A stretch of 64,000 nucleotides of DNA. It comes from an uncultured Candidatus Rokubacteria bacterium (lineage in GTDB: Bacteria; Methylomirabilota; Methylomirabilia; Rokubacteriales; DASRDR01). Under the pieces are notes generated by a model that saw only the letters and a list, made by a program, of their open reading frames with translations, did not search any database and was not told the origin of the DNA. Of this stretch, positions 2,187-35,962 are shown piece by piece. The stretch spans positions 896,001-960,000 of the forward strand of contig CAWGVS010000005.1 of assembly GCA_963826115.1 (NCBI GenBank), written 5' to 3'. Position 1 is the first letter of the stretch. Every line of letters begins with the position of its first letter. Made by a program: the position numbers and the translations under genes.

Positions 2187-6749
<4,563 letters not shown>

Positions 6750-30302: not shown

Positions 30303-30983
30303 TCAGCGCAGGGTCCAGCGGAGCCAGGCCGTCCGGATCCGCCAGGGCCGCTCCTCGCGGCGCTTGAAGCCCGGGGCGCCCGAGTAGGCGCGTGCCGCCT
30401 CGTCGAGGGCGGCCCGTGCCCGAGCGATGTCTCCCGTGGCCTGACACGCGCGGGCGAGCTTGTACTGCCCTTCCACGCTGGACGCGCGCACCTCGGTGAA
30501 GCGCTGGAGGTGCATCAGGGCCTCGCCCGGCTGGCCGTGCTGGAGGTAGTAGTCGCCGAGCCGGAGGTGCGGCTCACCGTAGCCGAGCCGAGGATCCCGC
30601 CCGAGCGCCTCCTCGATCAGAGGACGGCCGCGAGTCTCGTCGCCCAGGCGGAGCCGCGCGACCCCGAGGTAGTACGCGGTCTCGGCGACCTCGGGCGCGC
30701 GGGCATGGGCCGCTTCGAGGTGCGGCAGCGCGCGCGAGTGGTCACCTGCCTCGACCAGGAGCCGCCCGAGGTCGGCCTGGGCGTTGGCGTCGTGGGGGTT
30801 CATCGCGACGGCCCGGCGGACCTGGCGGATCGTCAGCCAGCGGTCGATGGCGCGAGGGATCCGGAACAGCCGCGCGGTGAGGTAGCCGTAGCTGGCGGCC
30901 CAGATCACGGCGACGATCACGAGAGCGAGGACGGGATTGCCCGTCATCCAGGTGAGCACGCCGAAGAGGAAGAGGTTCCTCAC
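30303..30983 (-). CDS. Membrane-anchored tetratricopeptide repeat protein
   Basis: N-terminal TM, NPHDANAQADLGRLL, AYYLGVA, PHLRLGDYY. Confidence 0.8.
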   Translation of the reverse strand: MRNLFLFGVLTWMTGNPVLALVIVAVIWAASYGYLTARLFRIPRAIDRWLTIRQVRRAVAMNPHDANAQADLGRLLVEAGDHSRALPHLEAAHARAPEVAETAYYLGVARLRLGDETRGRPLIEEALGRDPRLGYGEPHLRLGDYYLQHGQPGEALMHLQRFTEVRASSVEGQYKLARACQATGDIARARAALDEAARAYSGAPGFKRREERPWRIRTAWLRWTLR

Positions 30984-31051
30984 GGGCTCTCACGATAGCG
31001 GCCGGAGCCGGCGCGCGTCCAGCGCCGATCCACCGATCGCGATCAGCGGGA

Positions 31052-31141
31052 TGGTGCCGGGGGAGGGAGTCGAACCCTCACACGTCTTGCGACGTAGCGG
31101 ATTTTAAGTCCGCCGCGTATGTCCAGTTTCGCCACCCCGGC
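31052..31141 (-). tRNA. tRNA-Leu(TAA)
   Basis: GCCGGGG...GCGGA-CTTAAAA-TCCGC, long variable arm, GGTTCGACTCC, CCA end. Confidence 0.95.
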
Positions 31142-31208
31142 GCGCGGTGACGTCGCCCACCTACGATACCCGGAATCCCTGCCCGGCTAGCTGAGAAGGA
31201 AGAAGTCC

Positions 31209-31586
31209 GTGCTACCCTCCCGGCATGACGCGCGGATTTCGGTCAATCGCGAGGAACACGGTGTCTGCCCAGGATTGCACGTGAGCCCCCCCGACGGCGC
31301 GACCTGCGTCGTGTGCAAGTCCGTGGCGGTGCCCATCAAGGGTGGCGGCGTCGTGCAGTGGGAGCGACAGGATACGCCGGAGTTCCACTACATGGCGACG
31401 CCGCCGGCGATGCGCCGGCGTCAGTGGGCCGCGGAGGAGAAGCTGGCGCCGCTCCGGGATCGCATGGATGCGATCCACCGGAAGGGCCAGGTCGCCTGGA
31501 TCGACGTGAAGGAGAACGGTGACTTCGTCTTCTACCAGGCGCCGCACGGGCAGGTGCCCGCGAACATCCCGCGGACGCCCAGGTAG
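31209..31586 (+). CDS. Hypothetical protein with CxxC
   Basis: AAGGA RBS, GC3-biased frame, TCVVCKS; start uncertain. Confidence 0.5.
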   Translation: MLPSRHDARISVNREEHGVCPGLHVSPPDGATCVVCKSVAVPIKGGGVVQWERQDTPEFHYMATPPAMRRRQWAAEEKLAPLRDRMDAIHRKGQVAWIDVKENGDFVFYQAPHGQVPANIPRTPR

Positions 31587-31616
31587 CTGTCGGGACGACC
31601 GCCGGGTTCGATTCTC

Positions 31617-31766
31617 TTAGAGACAGTTCCGGGCGATGCGACCCGAGAACGTGTCCACGCACGCCTGCGGCGGGGCCGGACCCGCCGGCTGCCCCGACGG
31701 CGCCGTCGAGACGCCTGCGCACCCGTACATTCCCAGCACGACCAGGCTCAGCAGGATGGCCCGCAT
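31617..31766 (-). CDS. Small lipoprotein (49 aa)
   Basis: GGAG RBS; MRAILLSLVVLGMYG-C lipobox; C-terminal Cys pair. Confidence 0.55.
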   Translation of the reverse strand: MRAILLSLVVLGMYGCAGVSTAPSGQPAGPAPPQACVDTFSGRIARNCL

Positions 31767-31903
31767 TCTTGTGCTCCAGTCCTCTTGTCCGGCTGCCACG
31801 ACGATCCGATGACGGCTCGTCCGCTGTCCACAGGGCTCGTCGAAATGTGAACGCGCGAAGAGAAGCCGGTGTTCCCCTCGCGCGGAGCTGGCACCAGGAG
31901 GGA

Positions 31904-31979
31904 TGGAGGCGGCGGGCGGATTCGAACCGCCGAGTAACGGTTTTGCAGACCGTCGCCTTAGCCACTTGGCTACGCCGCC
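31904..31979 (-). tRNA. tRNA-Cys(GCA)
   Basis: GGCGGCG...ACGGT-CTGCAAA-ACCGT...GGTTCGAATCC...CCA. Confidence 0.96.
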
Positions 31980-32030
31980 GTGTCCGGACCGACGCGAGAC
32001 GGGGAGTCAGCGCGCGGGACGACGCGCTGA

Positions 32031-32039
32031 ATTGTACCA
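32031..32039 (-). promoter_or_regulatory. Extended -10 promoter of tRNA-Cys
   Basis: TGgTACAAT about 50 nt upstream of the tRNA. Confidence 0.5.
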
Positions 32040-32082
32040 CCGCGTGCCGACGGGGAAGGCCCGAGCCTCCCTGCGTAGTCCG

Positions 32083-32205
32083 CTAGGGGTTGTCGGCGGT
32101 GATGTCGAAGCCCGCGTAGAGGATCTCTTGCTCGAGCTCCTCGGGCGTGAGGACGCGCTCGACGCGCGGACGCTCGTACTCGGGTGCGGCGGGCGCCTCG
32201 GTCAT
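32083..32205 (-). CDS. Putative RiPP precursor 4
   Basis: MTEAPAAPEYERPRVERVLTPEELEQEILYAG-FDITADNP; GAGG RBS. Confidence 0.75.
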   Translation of the reverse strand: MTEAPAAPEYERPRVERVLTPEELEQEILYAGFDITADNP

Positions 32206-32285
32206 GGCGTCATGCCTCAAGGCGTTGCGGAACCGTGCTCTCCGCGAGGCCCCGGACGACCTCACGGAGCAGCCCCATCGGCCGG

Positions 32286-32408
32286 CTACCCCTCACCGTC
32301 GACGCTGTTGTCGCCTGCGTAGAGGATCTCCTGCTCGAGCTCCTCGGGCGTGGGGACGCGCTCGACGCGAGGGCGCTCGTACTCGGGTGCGGTGGGCACC
32401 TCGGTCAT
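32286..32408 (-). CDS. Putative RiPP precursor 3 (absent from the ORF track)
   Basis: Manual translation: MTEVPTAPEYERPRVERVPTPEELEQEILYAG-DNSVDGEG; GAGG RBS. Confidence 0.75.
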   Translation of the reverse strand: MTEVPTAPEYERPRVERVPTPEELEQEILYAGDNSVDGEG

Positions 32409-32488
32409 GGCGTCATGCCTCAAGGCGTGGCGGAACCGTGCTCTTCGTGAGGCCCCGGACGGCCTCGCGGAGCGGCCTCATCGGTCGG

Positions 32489-32614
32489 CTAGCCGTCGCC
32501 GTCGATGCTGTTGTCGGTGCCGGCGTAGAGGATCTCTTGCTCGAGTTCCTCGGGCGTGAGGACGCGCTCGACACGCGGGCGCTCGTACTCGGATGCGGCG
32601 GGCGTCTCGGCCAT
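32489..32614 (-). CDS. Putative RiPP precursor 2
   Basis: MAETPAASEYERPRVERVLTPEELEQEILYAG-TDNSIDGDG; AGGAGG RBS. Confidence 0.75.
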   Translation of the reverse strand: MAETPAASEYERPRVERVLTPEELEQEILYAGTDNSIDGDG

Positions 32615-32694
32615 GGCGTCATGCCTCCTGGCGTGGCGGAACCGTCTTGTCCGTGAGACCCCGGGCGACCTCGCGGAGCGGCCCCATCCGCTGG

Positions 32695-32817
32695 CTAGCT
32701 GTCGCCGACGACGCTGTTGTCGCCGGCGTAGAGGATCTCCTGCTCGAGTTCTTCGGGCGTGAGGACGCGCTCGACACGCGGGCGCTCGTACTCGGATGCG
32801 GCGGGCGTCTCGACCAT
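32695..32817 (-). CDS. Putative RiPP precursor 1
   Basis: MVETPAASEYERPRVERVLTPEELEQEILYAG-DNSVVGDS; AGGAGG RBS; TAAAAT -10 candidate at 32877-32882. Confidence 0.75.
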   Translation of the reverse strand: MVETPAASEYERPRVERVLTPEELEQEILYAGDNSVVGDS

Positions 32818-32924
32818 GGCGCAAGACCTCCTGGCGCGAGTGGACCCGGAGTCTCCGTGAACACCAACGACTGCAGATTTTACCCCAGGCGCGGGCCCGG
32901 TGGCCCGGAAAGATCCGCGCACCG

Positions 32925-33314
32925 CTAGGGGGTCAAGACTTGCTCCTGTCCGTCCTCGTTCCGGAGCCTGAGCGAGCTCGTCCTGCCCTCGGCCTTCAGC
33001 ACGAGGTACGTGTCCCGCGAGGTGGCGTGTCCGGTGAAGCTGAGCCCGGCGCCCTCATCCGACGCCGCGATCTTGACGGCCGGGCGCCCGTGCGCGTCGA
33101 TCAGGCGGAGGATCACCGTCTCCGGCGTCGCCCCGGCCGGCAGGACCTGGAGGCTCGCCCGCACCCTCCCCTGCTGATCCACGATCTCGAGAGCCTGGGC
33201 CCGGAGCACCGGGGGCGGGCCCTGCGCGCCGCTCGGCCGGCCGTCGGTGAACAGGGCGGTCAGGAGGAGAAGATTCAGGGCCGCGAGGGCCGTGAGCCAT
33301 CGCTCAGTCGTCAC
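32925..33314 (-). CDS. Exported hypothetical protein
   Basis: AGGAGG RBS plus GTG; hydrophobic N-terminus; VLRAQALEIVDQQGRVRA. Confidence 0.7.
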   Translation of the reverse strand: MTTERWLTALAALNLLLLTALFTDGRPSGAQGPPPVLRAQALEIVDQQGRVRASLQVLPAGATPETVILRLIDAHGRPAVKIAASDEGAGLSFTGHATSRDTYLVLKAEGRTSSLRLRNEDGQEQVLTP

Positions 33315-33366
33315 GGGTCCTCCTGCGCTGAGCCGTGGGCCGGCGCCGAGGCCGGCCACGGCGGGC

Positions 33367-34638
33367 CTACGGGTAGAAGCCTCTCAGCTGGAACGCGTCG
33401 GCCACGCGGCGGATGCCCACCATGAGCGCCGCGGTCCGGAGGTCGACGCGCTCTCGCTTCGCCATCGCGCTCACCTGGTTGTACGCGCGGGTCATGAGCT
33501 CCTGGAGCCGCGAGTTGATCTCACTCTCCTTCCAGAAGTGGTACTGGAGCCCCTGCACCCACTCGAAGTACGAGACGATCACGCCGCCCGCGTTGGCGAG
33601 GATGTCCGGGATGACGACGATCCCGCGGTCGGTGAGGATCCCGTCCGCCTCGGGCGTCGTCGGGCCGTTGGCGCCCTCCGCGACGATCTTGGCCCGCACG
33701 CGGTCGGCGTTCTGCTCGGTGATCTGGCCGCCGAGAGCCGCCGGCACGAGAACGTCGCACGGGAGCTCGAGGAGATCGGCGTTCGAGATCGGATCGGCGT
33801 CGGCGAATCCCGCCACCGTGCCGGCCTCCTTGACGTGGAGCGCGAGGGCCCGGATGTCCATGCCGCGCGAGTTGAACACGCCGCCCTTCGCGTCGACCAC
33901 GCCCGTGACCAGCGCCCCTTCCCGCCACAGGACCCGGGCCGTCACCGAGCCTACGTTGCCGAAGCCCTGGATGGCCACGCGCGCGCCGCGGAGCTCGAGC
34001 CGGGCCTCGCGCACGGCCTGGGAGAGGACGTAGACGAGTCCGCGCCCGGTGGCATCCCGGCGTCCGGCGGAGCCGCCGACCAGGATCGGCTTGCCGGTCA
34101 CGACGCCGGGGACCGTGCGCCCCTGGGTCATGGCGTAGGTGTCCATGATCCAGGCCATCGTCTGCTCGTCCGTACCCATGTCAGGGGCCGGGATGTCGAG
34201 GTCCGGTCCGATGAACAGCATCACCTCGGCGGTGTAGCGGCGGGTCATGTGCTCGAGCTCCTGCCGGCTCATCGTCCCGGGGTTGCAGGCGACGCCGCCC
34301 TTGGCCCCGCCGTACGGGAGCTGCATGAGCGCGCATTTCCAGCTCATCAGCATCGCGAGCGCCGACACCTCGGGGAGCGAGACGCCCGGGTGATAGCGGA
34401 TGCCGCCCTTCGTGGGGCCGAGGATCGTGCAGTGGTGGACCCGGTAGCCGAGGAAGACCTCGGTGCGGCCGTCGTCCATGCGCGTGGGGACGCTGACGAC
34501 GAGGGCTCGGCGGGGATACCTCAGGCGCTCGTGGATGCCCGGGTCGAGGGCCAGCCGCTTGGCGACGGCGTCCAGCTGCTGGAGCGCGGTGCGATACGAC
34601 TCCGAGCTCTCGAAGGTGTCCTCTTTGCTCCCGGTCAT
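33367..34638 (-). CDS. gdhA: Glu/Leu/Phe/Val dehydrogenase (glutamate dehydrogenase)
   Basis: GPTKGGIRY, PYGGAKGG, DIPAPDMGT, IQGFGNVG, EGANGPTT, NAGGVIVSYFEW. Confidence 0.92.
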   Translation of the reverse strand: MTGSKEDTFESSESYRTALQQLDAVAKRLALDPGIHERLRYPRRALVVSVPTRMDDGRTEVFLGYRVHHCTILGPTKGGIRYHPGVSLPEVSALAMLMSWKCALMQLPYGGAKGGVACNPGTMSRQELEHMTRRYTAEVMLFIGPDLDIPAPDMGTDEQTMAWIMDTYAMTQGRTVPGVVTGKPILVGGSAGRRDATGRGLVYVLSQAVREARLELRGARVAIQGFGNVGSVTARVLWREGALVTGVVDAKGGVFNSRGMDIRALALHVKEAGTVAGFADADPISNADLLELPCDVLVPAALGGQITEQNADRVRAKIVAEGANGPTTPEADGILTDRGIVVIPDILANAGGVIVSYFEWVQGLQYHFWKESEINSRLQELMTRAYNQVSAMAKRERVDLRTAALMVGIRRVADAFQLRGFYP

Positions 34639-34749
34639 GCGAGACTCCTCCCAGGCGCGCACGATGCGAGCGGCGCTGCCCATGGCATGGTCTCACGACC
34701 GACCGGGAGGCGCCGCAAGGAGGAAACCCGACGGGACGGTCAAAATGCG

Positions 34750-34808
34750 AGAGGCGGGGTGGTCACCTCAGCGGCACGAAATGCCGCGAGTGACCCTTCC
34801 CCGCCTCT
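34750..34808 (-). terminator. Long stem-loop just 3' of tRNA-Gly
   Basis: AGAGGCGGGG..GTCAC..GCGGCA-cgaaa-TGCCGC..GTGAC..CCCCGCCTCT, followed on the minus strand by a short T run. Confidence 0.55.
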
Positions 34809-34818
34809 GGCGGAAAAC

Positions 34819-34893
<75 letters not shown>

Positions 34894-34904
34894 GCGATGT
34901 CCGG

Positions 34905-34933
34905 ATTCTAGCAGGGCGCCTCCGGAGGGTCAA
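34905..34933 (-). promoter_or_regulatory. sigma70 promoter of tRNA-Gly
   Basis: TTGACC-N17-TAGAAT with TG extension. Confidence 0.75.
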
Positions 34934-34948
34934 CGCGAGCGCGCCGCG

Positions 34949-35962
34949 TCAGCTCCGCGCCGCCTCGGGCGCCGCCCCGGCCCGGCGGAGGAACCGCGCC
35001 GCGTCCTCGGGCGGGGTCGGGTTGATGAAGAACCCGGTGCCGAGCTCGAACCCCGCCAGCCGCGTGAGCTTCGGCATGAGCTCGAGGTGCCAGTGGAAGT
35101 GCTCGGGGTCCGGGTTCCGGAGGGGCGCCGTGTGGAGCGCGAAGTTGTACGGCGGATCGGCGAAGAGCCGCCCGAGCCGAGCGAGCAGCTCCCGGAGGAG
35201 CCGCGCGAGGGCGTCGATCTCGTCCGTCTCGAGGCTCTCGAAGCTCGCCCGGTGAGTGGTCGGGAGCACCCACGTCTCGTACGGGAAGCGGGCAGCGTAG
35301 GGCGTCACCGCGACGAACCCGTCCTCTTCGAGGACCAGGCGGGTGCCGTCCCGCCGCTCCTGGCGGACGACGTCGCACCAGACGCAGCGCTCCTTCATGC
35401 GGAAGTAACGGAGGGCGCCGTCGAGCTCCTCGGCGACCAGCTCGGGCAGGATCGGCGTCGCGATGAGCTGGGAGTGCGGGTGCTCGAGCGACGCGCCCGC
35501 CTGCACGCCGTGGTTCTTGAAGATCAGGACGTACTCGAGGCGCGGGTCCCGGCGGAGCGCGAGGAGCCGCTCCCGGTACGCCACCAGGACCTCGCCGACG
35601 TGGGCGGCCGGCAGGGTCCCGAGGCTCGCCAAGTGGTCGGGGCTCTCGATCACGACCTCGTGGGCCCCCACCCCGTCGATCCGGTCGTAGATCCCGTCGC
35701 CCGCCGCGTGGACCTCGCCTCCGTCCGCGTGGAGCGCGGGGAACTTGTTGGGCACCACGCGGACCGACCACGGCCCGTCCTCCGAGCCGCCGGACCGGTA
35801 GACCTCGGGCGGCGTGCGGTCCTCGTGCCCCGGGCAGAAGGGGCAGCCCTCGGGCCCCCGCGTCGGCACGATCTCGGGCGCGAAGTCCATCGGCCGCCGC
35901 GCGCGCTCGGTGGCGATGATGACCCAGCGCTCCACCACGGGGTCCTTCCGGAGCTCAGGCAT
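34949..35962 (-). CDS. galT: Galactose-1-phosphate uridylyltransferase
   Basis: ELRKDPV, CPFCPG, VPNKFPAL, GASLEHPHSQ. Confidence 0.92.
   Translation of the reverse strand: MPELRKDPVVERWVIIATERARRPMDFAPEIVPTRGPEGCPFCPGHEDRTPPEVYRSGGSEDGPWSVRVVPNKFPALHADGGEVHAAGDGIYDRIDGVGAHEVVIESPDHLASLGTLPAAHVGEVLVAYRERLLALRRDPRLEYVLIFKNHGVQAGASLEHPHSQLIATPILPELVAEELDGALRYFRMKERCVWCDVVRQERRDGTRLVLEEDGFVAVTPYAARFPYETWVLPTTHRASFESLETDEIDALARLLRELLARLGRLFADPPYNFALHTAPLRNPDPEHFHWHLELMPKLTRLAGFELGTGFFINPTPPEDAARFLRRAGAAPEAARS

Follow-up and report, generated by a model that had tools for sequence, protein, structure and literature searches.

Prochlorosin-type libraries consist of scattered genes in which a conserved leader is joined to a hypervariable core, all served by one enzyme set that comprises a lanthionine synthetase and no recognition element of the kind considered below. 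Closer in their components are the phosphorylated and phosphoglycosylated lasso peptides, which belong to the RiPPs, peptides that are made on the ribosome and modified after translation. According to PMC10368454, the kinase BsfK phosphorylates Ser3 of the core and is strongly stimulated by BsfB1, a RiPP recognition element (RRE), and PMC8498205 reports that the pseudomycoidin enzyme PsmN places one or two hexoses on phosphoserine in vivo. The present analysis concerns a 64,000-nt stretch (hereafter the window) of contig CAWGVS010000005.1 (positions 896,001 to 960,000, forward strand) from the genome of an uncultured Candidatus Rokubacteria bacterium (GCA_963826115.1, here G000), in which four co-oriented genes for peptides of 40-41 amino acids (aa) are arranged in tandem on the minus strand (32083-32817). 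Comparison with related genomes suggests that these four genes are probably (at a rough probability of 0.7) trans-encoded precursors of an uncharacterized RRE-dependent RiPP, phosphorylated and modified by a radical S-adenosylmethionine (SAM) enzyme through a chemistry that we infer, the maturation enzymes being encoded about 683 kb away.

The peptide family and its adjoining enzyme module

A profile constructed from the four peptides detected seven further copies in the same genome, located at C12:700146, at C5:625241 and, as five tandem genes, at C5:241.4-242.2 kb. The profile of all eleven copies matched 640 proteins at E <= 1e-3 in a collection of 5.8 billion proteins, which share one block and carry divergent tails, in keeping with a first-pass annotation of the window, in which a conserved leader followed by a variable core was proposed. 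The best 120 of the 640, every one of them named only "hypothetical protein", have the consensus Y-E-P-P-R-[VI]-E-R-[VI]-L-T-P-x-E-L-E-x-E-[IVF]-L-Y-A-G, with complete divergence thereafter. Among 62 aligned members, residues Y10, R14, E16, Y30, A31 and G32 are invariant and E11, P13, L19, T20, P21, L24 and E27 nearly so, while position 15 is occupied by Val or Ile in 51 of the 59 precursor genes tabulated. Four proteins from other metagenome contigs (P0011, P0018, P0051 and P0079) show 71-88% identity to copy A of the array (BLASTP). The clusters nearest to the peptides in a protein atlas are unnamed, and no match to the four peptides was found in Pfam and NCBIfam at E <= 10.

Tail statistics were obtained from the 114 unique tails present in the best 120 of the 640 matches and, these being the top-scoring ones, describe the core of the family. 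Tails extend 4-25 aa beyond YAG (median 8); Asp (17%), Thr, Pro, Gly and Ser abound in them, whereas Cys (1), Trp (0), Lys (2) and His (1) are scarce. Ser or Thr is present in all 114 and falls among the first five residues in 112, compared with 90.2 +/- 4.0 in shuffled tails (0 of 500 shuffles reached 112). The motif D-x-[ST] was identified in 57/114 tails (32.4 +/- 4.5 in shuffles), whereas a C-terminal Ser occurs in six only. The conserved block ends in A-G, and the first-pass annotation had likened it to double-glycine leaders. The analogy to such leaders and to peptides processed by peptidase-containing ATP-binding cassette transporters (PCAT) found no support; the single C39-like match of the genome (PF03412), a 264-aa frame on contig C4, is distant from all family loci.

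The five tandem paralogues lie directly upstream of a three-gene module (G000:C5:242220-245604), situated on the same contig as the window array and composed of:

C5 module: PqqD (RRE) protein, 96 aa; PF05402, 55.3 bits; best NCBIfam match TIGR04353, 33.3 bits (cut-off 35)
C5 module: putative HPr-kinase-like peptide kinase, ~290 aa; best match TIGR04352, 60.2 bits (cut-off 200)
C5 module: fusion of radical SAM and NTP_transf_5 domains, 740 aa; PF04055, 72.6 bits; TIGR04078 (YydG-like), 76.3 bits (cut-off 300); PF14907, 96.5 bits

The PqqD family comprises 75 homologues, and among solved structures its profile comes closest to TbiB1 (E 1.3e-7) and TfuB1 (E 3.4e-3), both of which bind lasso leaders; with Y10 invariant and P13 nearly so, the leader would be classed as lasso-type from its sequence. 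The kinase motif H-x14-G-x4-GK[ST]-x15-DD is kept in G000 (as GKS) and at all eight other loci checked, and its spacing equals that of the essential residues of BsfK, for which PMC10368454 reports mutagenesis showing that H148, K169, S170, D186 and D187 matter. The radical SAM domain possesses a CxxxCxxC motif at residues 28-35 and four more cysteines that are invariant in 24 aligned homologues. Its closest solved structures are YydG (8ai6, E 2.7e-10), PqqE (E 3.1e-10), MoaA and SkfB, all within about 1e-10 to 1e-7; the domain is therefore, by homology, that of a peptide-type radical SAM enzyme, with no single reaction indicated.

Within the genus, precursors were detected in 10 of 14 other genomes, one of which (G008) gave only a weak partial match, and in none of 26 sampled genomes of other genera. 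Orthologues of the fusion (75-80% identity; fragmented in G001) and of the kinase (59-72% identity) occur in the same 8 of these 14 genomes, and in seven of the eight a precursor array is located directly upstream of the enzymes, with contig breaks crossing the cluster in G011 and G009. Counting G000, nine genomes of the genus carry the enzymes, and in 8 of them the module adjoins a precursor array; precursors are present in all nine and missing from 4 of the 6 enzyme-free genomes (G004, G005, G007 and G010, with neither precursor match nor enzymes). Across the phylum, the fusion was found in 10 of 251 genomes. In G168, the only one of these outside the genus and a member of another family of the same order, precursor, PqqD, kinase, radical SAM and NTP_transf_5 genes follow each other in the same order (51, 47, 59 and 52% identity for the four enzymes, respectively), and the last two are separate, overlapping genes (L147 = G168:C412, 5022-7090), so the fusion of the genus joins two neighboring genes. 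An aminotransferase gene precedes the array in the genus and is absent from the G168 locus; what is conserved is thus a module that runs from the precursor(s) through PqqD, kinase and radical SAM to the nucleotidyltransferase. The fusion enzyme family is wider than the genus, as about 25 clusters of the full-length fusion were found in a representative library at 35-51% identity. When metagenomes were scanned with the fusion alignment, most of the genes recovered were generic radical SAM ones (25-35% identity), the only close matches (L054 and L055) being too short for gene context.

Hence, a gene of leader/core type lies beside an RRE and modifying enzymes in G000, in seven other genomes of the genus and in G168. 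This adjacency is provided by the cluster-linked paralogues; the window array itself is not adjacent to such enzymes. Judged from its gene content, the system would be an RRE-dependent RiPP pathway built from lasso tailoring parts. The first-pass annotation had postulated RRE dependence, had listed candidate enzymes and had proposed a search with the leader profile; the peptide profiles recovered paralogues in this genome and its relatives that adjoin a PqqD-type RRE, a kinase and a radical SAM enzyme, the latter two types both being on that list.

The genome contains seven PqqD loci, and only the one on C5 has members of the precursor family within 3.5 kb. The six others are found at C1:41-45 kb, C9:31-36 kb, C12:797-798 kb, C6:833-835 kb, C12:368-370 kb and C6:110-116 kb; most of them carry HprK-like and/or NTP_transf_5 genes, and the last has a lasso B2-type protease domain. 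The PqqD frame at G000:C9:31250-31690 opens with a leader-like …LPYEPPELL… ahead of the PqqD domain and, on this sequence, may represent an RRE bearing its own docking motif. Pairs of NTP_transf_5 matches at G000:C9:33730-35603 and G000:C12:649-2522 have identical scores and spacing, which suggests one sequence assembled twice at contig ends.

The array and its genomic surroundings

The array and the features next to it are as follows:

32695-32817 (including stop), minus strand: candidate precursor gene A, first gene of the array, 40 aa, tail DNSVVGDS; family-profile match E 1.8e-28
32489-32614 (including stop), minus strand: candidate precursor gene B, 41 aa, tail TDNSIDGDG; family-profile match E 1.6e-28
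32286-32408 (including stop), minus strand: candidate precursor gene C, 40 aa, tail DNSVDGEG; family-profile match E 1.7e-27
32083-32205 (including stop), minus strand: candidate precursor gene D, last gene of the array, 40 aa, tail FDITADNP; family-profile match E 2.9e-25
32615-32694, 32409-32488 and 32206-32285, minus strand: three 80-nt intergenic spacers, each holding the ribosome-binding site of the next gene and a predicted GC-rich hairpin
31904-31979, minus strand (co-oriented): tRNA-Cys(GCA), 104 bp downstream of gene D

Four co-oriented open reading frames (ORFs) of 40-41 aa, each with its own ribosome-binding site, had been reported in the first-pass annotation, and both the ORFs and the Shine-Dalgarno-like GGAGG (A and B) or GAGG (C and D) found 9 nt ahead of every ATG (32827-32831 for the GGAGG of gene A) agree with it. 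The spacings that it gave, 203, 203 and 206 bp, are correct as values and wrong in order, since the start-to-start distances along A-D are 203, 206 and 203 bp. Residues 9-32 (EYERPRVERVLTPEELEQEILYAG) are the same in all four peptides with the sole exception of L19P in copy C, their codons differ at synonymous sites, and the four tails read exactly as stated there. Tandem Repeats Finder identified a single array at 32110-32821 (period 203, 3.5 copies, 89% matches, score 1089). The spacers share 84-90% pairwise identity, and their hairpins have a consensus energy of -30.6 kcal/mol with 25 predicted pairs, a structure that is unproven because 0 compensatory changes were seen (only three sequences compared). 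A TAAAAT hexamer at 32877-32882 (minus strand) precedes the ATG of gene A by ~60 nt and lacks a matching -35 element at normal spacing. A consensus scan of 31600-33500 returned 0 promoter-like and 0 terminator-like sites, and Rfam models detected only three tRNAs and one sub-threshold chance match over 30900-35000.

In the 72 nt encoding residues 9-32, seven of the eight variable columns are synonymous (binomial p 2.6e-4, with 17 of the 72 sites counted as synonymous), and the lone non-synonymous change of this block is the L19P of copy C. Pooled over copies, the proportion of synonymous sites that differ (pS) is 0.255 and that of non-synonymous sites (pN) 0.009, which gives a ratio of 0.036. 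By comparison, every difference within residues 1-8 is non-synonymous (pN 0.198, pS 0), and the tails of A, B and C have a pN/pS of 0.57, copy D having been left out as unalignable. On this substitution pattern, the array is a protein-coding tandem duplication, with a central block under strong purifying selection and with varying N-terminal ends and tails. The low pN/pS and the synonymous excess in the block therefore argue against a chance or neutral repeat, for which the first-pass annotation had foreseen a ratio near 1, and the similar spacers together with the constrained block point to a fairly recent tandem duplication in which selection has let both ends of the peptide change.

Downstream of the array are located the tRNA-Cys gene, a 125-aa ORF and a tRNA-Leu gene, and upstream a 144-aa ORF without known family, a glutamate dehydrogenase gene, a tRNA-Gly gene and a GalT-like gene; arginine biosynthesis genes, HslUV, XerC and topoisomerase I are encoded farther out. 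The 22 ORFs scanned from 22453 to 50306 include no PqqD, kinase, radical SAM or peptidase gene, and genome-wide searches for PqqD, NTP_transf_5, the B2 protease domain and HprK-related kinase A gave matches exclusively outside the window. The neighboring ORFs and the genome-wide domain matches thus identify the array as a true orphan, in accordance with the initial statement that no PqqD, peptidase or tailoring gene is adjacent. No att-like repeats marking an integrated element were found flanking the array. The tRNA-Leu/tRNA-Cys/glutamate dehydrogenase interval carries a family member in G000, G002 and G008, at differing positions and orientations. In G008, which is devoid of the enzyme module, a MAETP-type precursor split by a frameshift adjoins the glutamate dehydrogenase gene (L024 = G008:C72:167465-170509, 1421-1614); this latter gene is also frameshifted, so assembly indels are possible there.

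Dispersed copies and the weighing of explanations

The 59 precursor genes tabulated in 12 genomes comprise 39 cluster-linked and 19 dispersed copies (15 loci), plus one that was unplaced, with up to 11 copies per genome and differing tails. Dispersed copies keep the full conserved block, which is as conserved in them as in cluster copies. They differ from cluster-linked ones in their N-terminal ends (mostly 8-11 vs 13-26 aa), in the M[ATVE]E start (14/19 vs 0/39) and in the presence of Ile after Pro-Arg (12/19 vs 2/39). In a tree of 51 genes, constructed from 31 columns after eight broken or aberrant cluster-linked rows had been dropped and with 4 of 48 branches well supported, the dispersed label requires 5 changes, compared with 15.6 when shuffled (0/500 as low), and the four window genes form one clade (support 96/96).

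The G014 genome has intact PqqD, kinase and fusion frames and five intact precursors, all of them dispersed; between its aminotransferase and PqqD genes only a leaderless remnant was found, ending …VLYAGVDNSLDVDGGG (L148 = G014:C13:236001-246000, 4823-6514). This gene arrangement, seen in one genome, supports maturation of the precursors in trans, as was anticipated in the first-pass annotation. Together with the family and the module adjoining its cluster-linked members, it also lends sequence-level support to the overall interpretation given there, that of a precursor library for an uncharacterized RRE-dependent RiPP class.

The three dispersed loci of G000 (window 31904-32817, C12:699949-700280 and C5:625202-625559) lie 104, 111 and 135 bp from a tRNA gene (Cys, Leu-CAG and Ala-CGC, respectively). 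Only 0.33% of this genome, which has 64 tRNAs, is within 140 bp of any of them; for the cluster array the nearest lies 128 kb away. Over five genomes, a tRNA was located within ~500 bp of 7 of the 15 dispersed loci, and two more dispersed loci, both of G014, adjoin tyrosine integrase genes. The tRNA proximity could reflect integration hot spots, shared transcription or chance clustering.

In the pathway that we propose, the PqqD protein would bind Y10-x-x-P13-x-V15 of the leader, in the way lasso B1 proteins bind YxxPxL, and the kinase, docked through this RRE, would phosphorylate Ser or Thr at one of the first five positions past the invariant YAG. The nucleotidyltransferase domain may then extend the phosphate with a sugar or a nucleotide, and the radical SAM domain may add a further change (epimerization or cross-link) at an unspecified site. 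The leader would perhaps be removed after YAG by a protease, and the variable acidic tails would turn one enzyme set into the source of a small product library.

Several observations weigh against this proposal. The window array is separated from the enzymes by ~683 kb, while the genome has six further PqqD loci that could in principle partner it, several of them accompanied by HprK-like and NTP_transf_5 genes. Neither the kinase nor the PqqD protein reaches the curated cut-off of its named NCBIfam family, the radical SAM domain stands at a similar distance from YydG, PqqE, MoaA and SkfB, which points to no one reaction, and neither a leader peptidase nor a dedicated exporter was identified in the conserved module. 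Thr20 of the conserved block is nearly invariant and could be the kinase site instead. One genome, G006 (68% complete), has an intact precursor, and the enzymes were not found in it. Finally, the tree built from these short sequences shows poor resolution in its deeper branches and does not give the origin of the window array.

Of the other explanations, the one that places the modification in the conserved block appears unlikely. Glu27/Tyr30 or YAG, for example, would be cross-linked or excised in a PQQ (pyrroloquinoline quinone)- or mycofactocin-like manner, yielding a cofactor-like or constant peptide, with the tails being dispensable. The invariance of Y30, A31 and G32 and near-invariance of E27 in the 62 aligned members fit this scheme, as do the discrete PqqD, which is also a feature of PQQ biosynthesis, and a radical SAM domain that matches PqqE as well as YydG (E 3.1e-10 and 2.7e-10). 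However, the tails are constrained, both in the position of Ser/Thr (112/114 in the first five residues) and in the near absence of Cys, Trp, Lys and His, and up to 11 copies per genome, each with its own tail, would be expected of a product library rather than of a cofactor. Moreover, PqqA has the spacing E-x3-Y, from which the Glu-Tyr spacing of the family differs, and we know of no role for a kinase or a nucleotidyltransferase in the PQQ and mycofactocin pathways. A slightly smaller likelihood is attributed to the peptides acting as small proteins or regulators in their own right, with no connection to the distant enzymes and resembling the cluster precursors through common descent only. 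Such a role would agree with the location of the array among housekeeping genes, ~683 kb from the module, and with the N-terminal length and M[ATVE]E start that set dispersed copies apart, but it would leave unexplained why the RRE-type motif and the whole 24-residue block are equally conserved in both groups, why precursor presence tracks enzyme presence over 15 genomes of the genus and why G014 combines the enzymes with dispersed precursors only.

Tails of 4-25 aa (median 8) are too short for a ring of 7-9 residues followed by loop and tail, Thr is missing at -2, where the conserved boundary reads Y-A-G, and cyclase and B2 genes are absent from the module in both G000 and G168, in line with the original view that the peptides do not fit the lasso class. 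It is thus very improbable that they are lasso precursors processed by the only lasso-type locus of the genome (G000:C6:110-116 kb), which contributes its lone B2-type protease domain (PF13471, contig C6) and has no family member within 3.5 kb, in spite of the YxxPx[VI] leader motif, the B1-like RRE and the nearest named protein-atlas clusters being lasso leader families (at a score of 0.84 only, which makes this a lead only). Equally little credit is given to a neutral or decaying, functionless tandem duplication of a precursor gene. The duplication does appear recent (spacers 84-90% identical, one clade at 96/96), and copy C carries L19P in the conserved block; on the other side stand the pN/pS of residues 9-32 (0.036), the excess of synonymous columns among those that vary there (7 of 8, p 2.6e-4), four intact frames each preceded by a ribosome-binding site, and close relatives on other metagenome contigs, 71-88% identical to copy A.

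Trans-encoded precursors of an RRE-dependent RiPP thus remain the favored interpretation of the four genes. Its extension to a new RiPP class of soil Rokubacteria, in which acidic Ser/Thr peptides with a lasso-type leader and RRE, and no lasso, would be phosphorylated, decorated on the phosphate and changed by radical SAM chemistry, most of this substrate repertoire being dispersed, tRNA-adjacent and matured in trans by one enzyme set, is offered tentatively, with odds that fall a little short of even. If correct, lasso tailoring enzymes (RRE, kinase and nucleotidyltransferase) would form a self-standing pathway combined with radical SAM chemistry, giving a product class never isolated, in a phylum without cultured producers. 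Hundreds of tails on one invariant leader would constitute a natural library for the substrate rules of RRE-dependent kinases. The array would also clearly illustrate how precursor genes can be located at a distance from the enzymes that act on them, a type of gene that cluster-based genome mining misses, and the tRNA-adjacent placement of the dispersed copies may inform how precursor genes spread or are expressed.

Comparison with known systems

A literature search, outside which subscription journals and supplements fell, gave no description of the precursor family or of a lasso-free module of PqqD, HprK-like kinase, NTP_transf_5 and radical SAM components, and the terms kinase, nucleotidyltransferase and HPr are absent from the RRE-Finder paper and from the 2025 RRE structure paper. 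Among the closest counterparts are the tailoring sets of phosphorylated and phosphoglycosylated lasso peptides (paeninodin PadeK; Bradymonas BsfK/BsfB1; pseudomycoidin PsmK/PsmN), which share with the module a discrete B1-type PqqD/RRE and a nucleotidyltransferase of NTP_transf_5 type. The HPr-kinase homologue has the catalytic motif and spacing of the lasso kinases PadeK and BsfK, and the precursors have the YxxPx[LVI] leader and a Ser/Thr near the leader-core boundary, comparable to Ser3 of BsfA (PMC10368454 and PMC8498205). Unlike these sets, the module includes neither a lasso cyclase nor a B2 protease, its nucleotidyltransferase forms one protein with a radical SAM domain, and tails of this length could not make a lasso. 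The tails also differ from PadeK substrates, as the C-terminal Ser that is the PadeK-type site was found in just 6 of 114.

With respect to the epipeptides (YydF; YydG/EpeE), the radical SAM domain has YydG as its top match both in NCBIfam and among solved structures, yet it falls far below the TIGR04078 cut-off (76.3 vs 300 bits) and is scored similarly by PqqE, MoaA and SkfB. YydG epimerizes Val/Ile, residues that many tails lack, and the precursors of the family are unrelated to YydF. Membership in the YydG family was consequently rejected on the bit score and on the lack of any precursor match to NCBIfam or Pfam models at E <= 10. The HPr-rel-A system (TIGR04352 kinase and TIGR04353 PqqD chaperone) supplies the best-scoring named families and displays the same gene pairing, to which the module adds a radical SAM domain and its own precursor family; assignment to it was rejected as well, the kinase reaching 60.2 of 200 bits and the PqqD protein 33.3 of 35 bits. 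Finally, the likeness to prochlorosins consists in scattered leader/variable-core genes served by one enzyme set, whereas the enzymes and the chemistry differ and the dispersed copies described here are small arrays or single genes, often adjacent to a tRNA.

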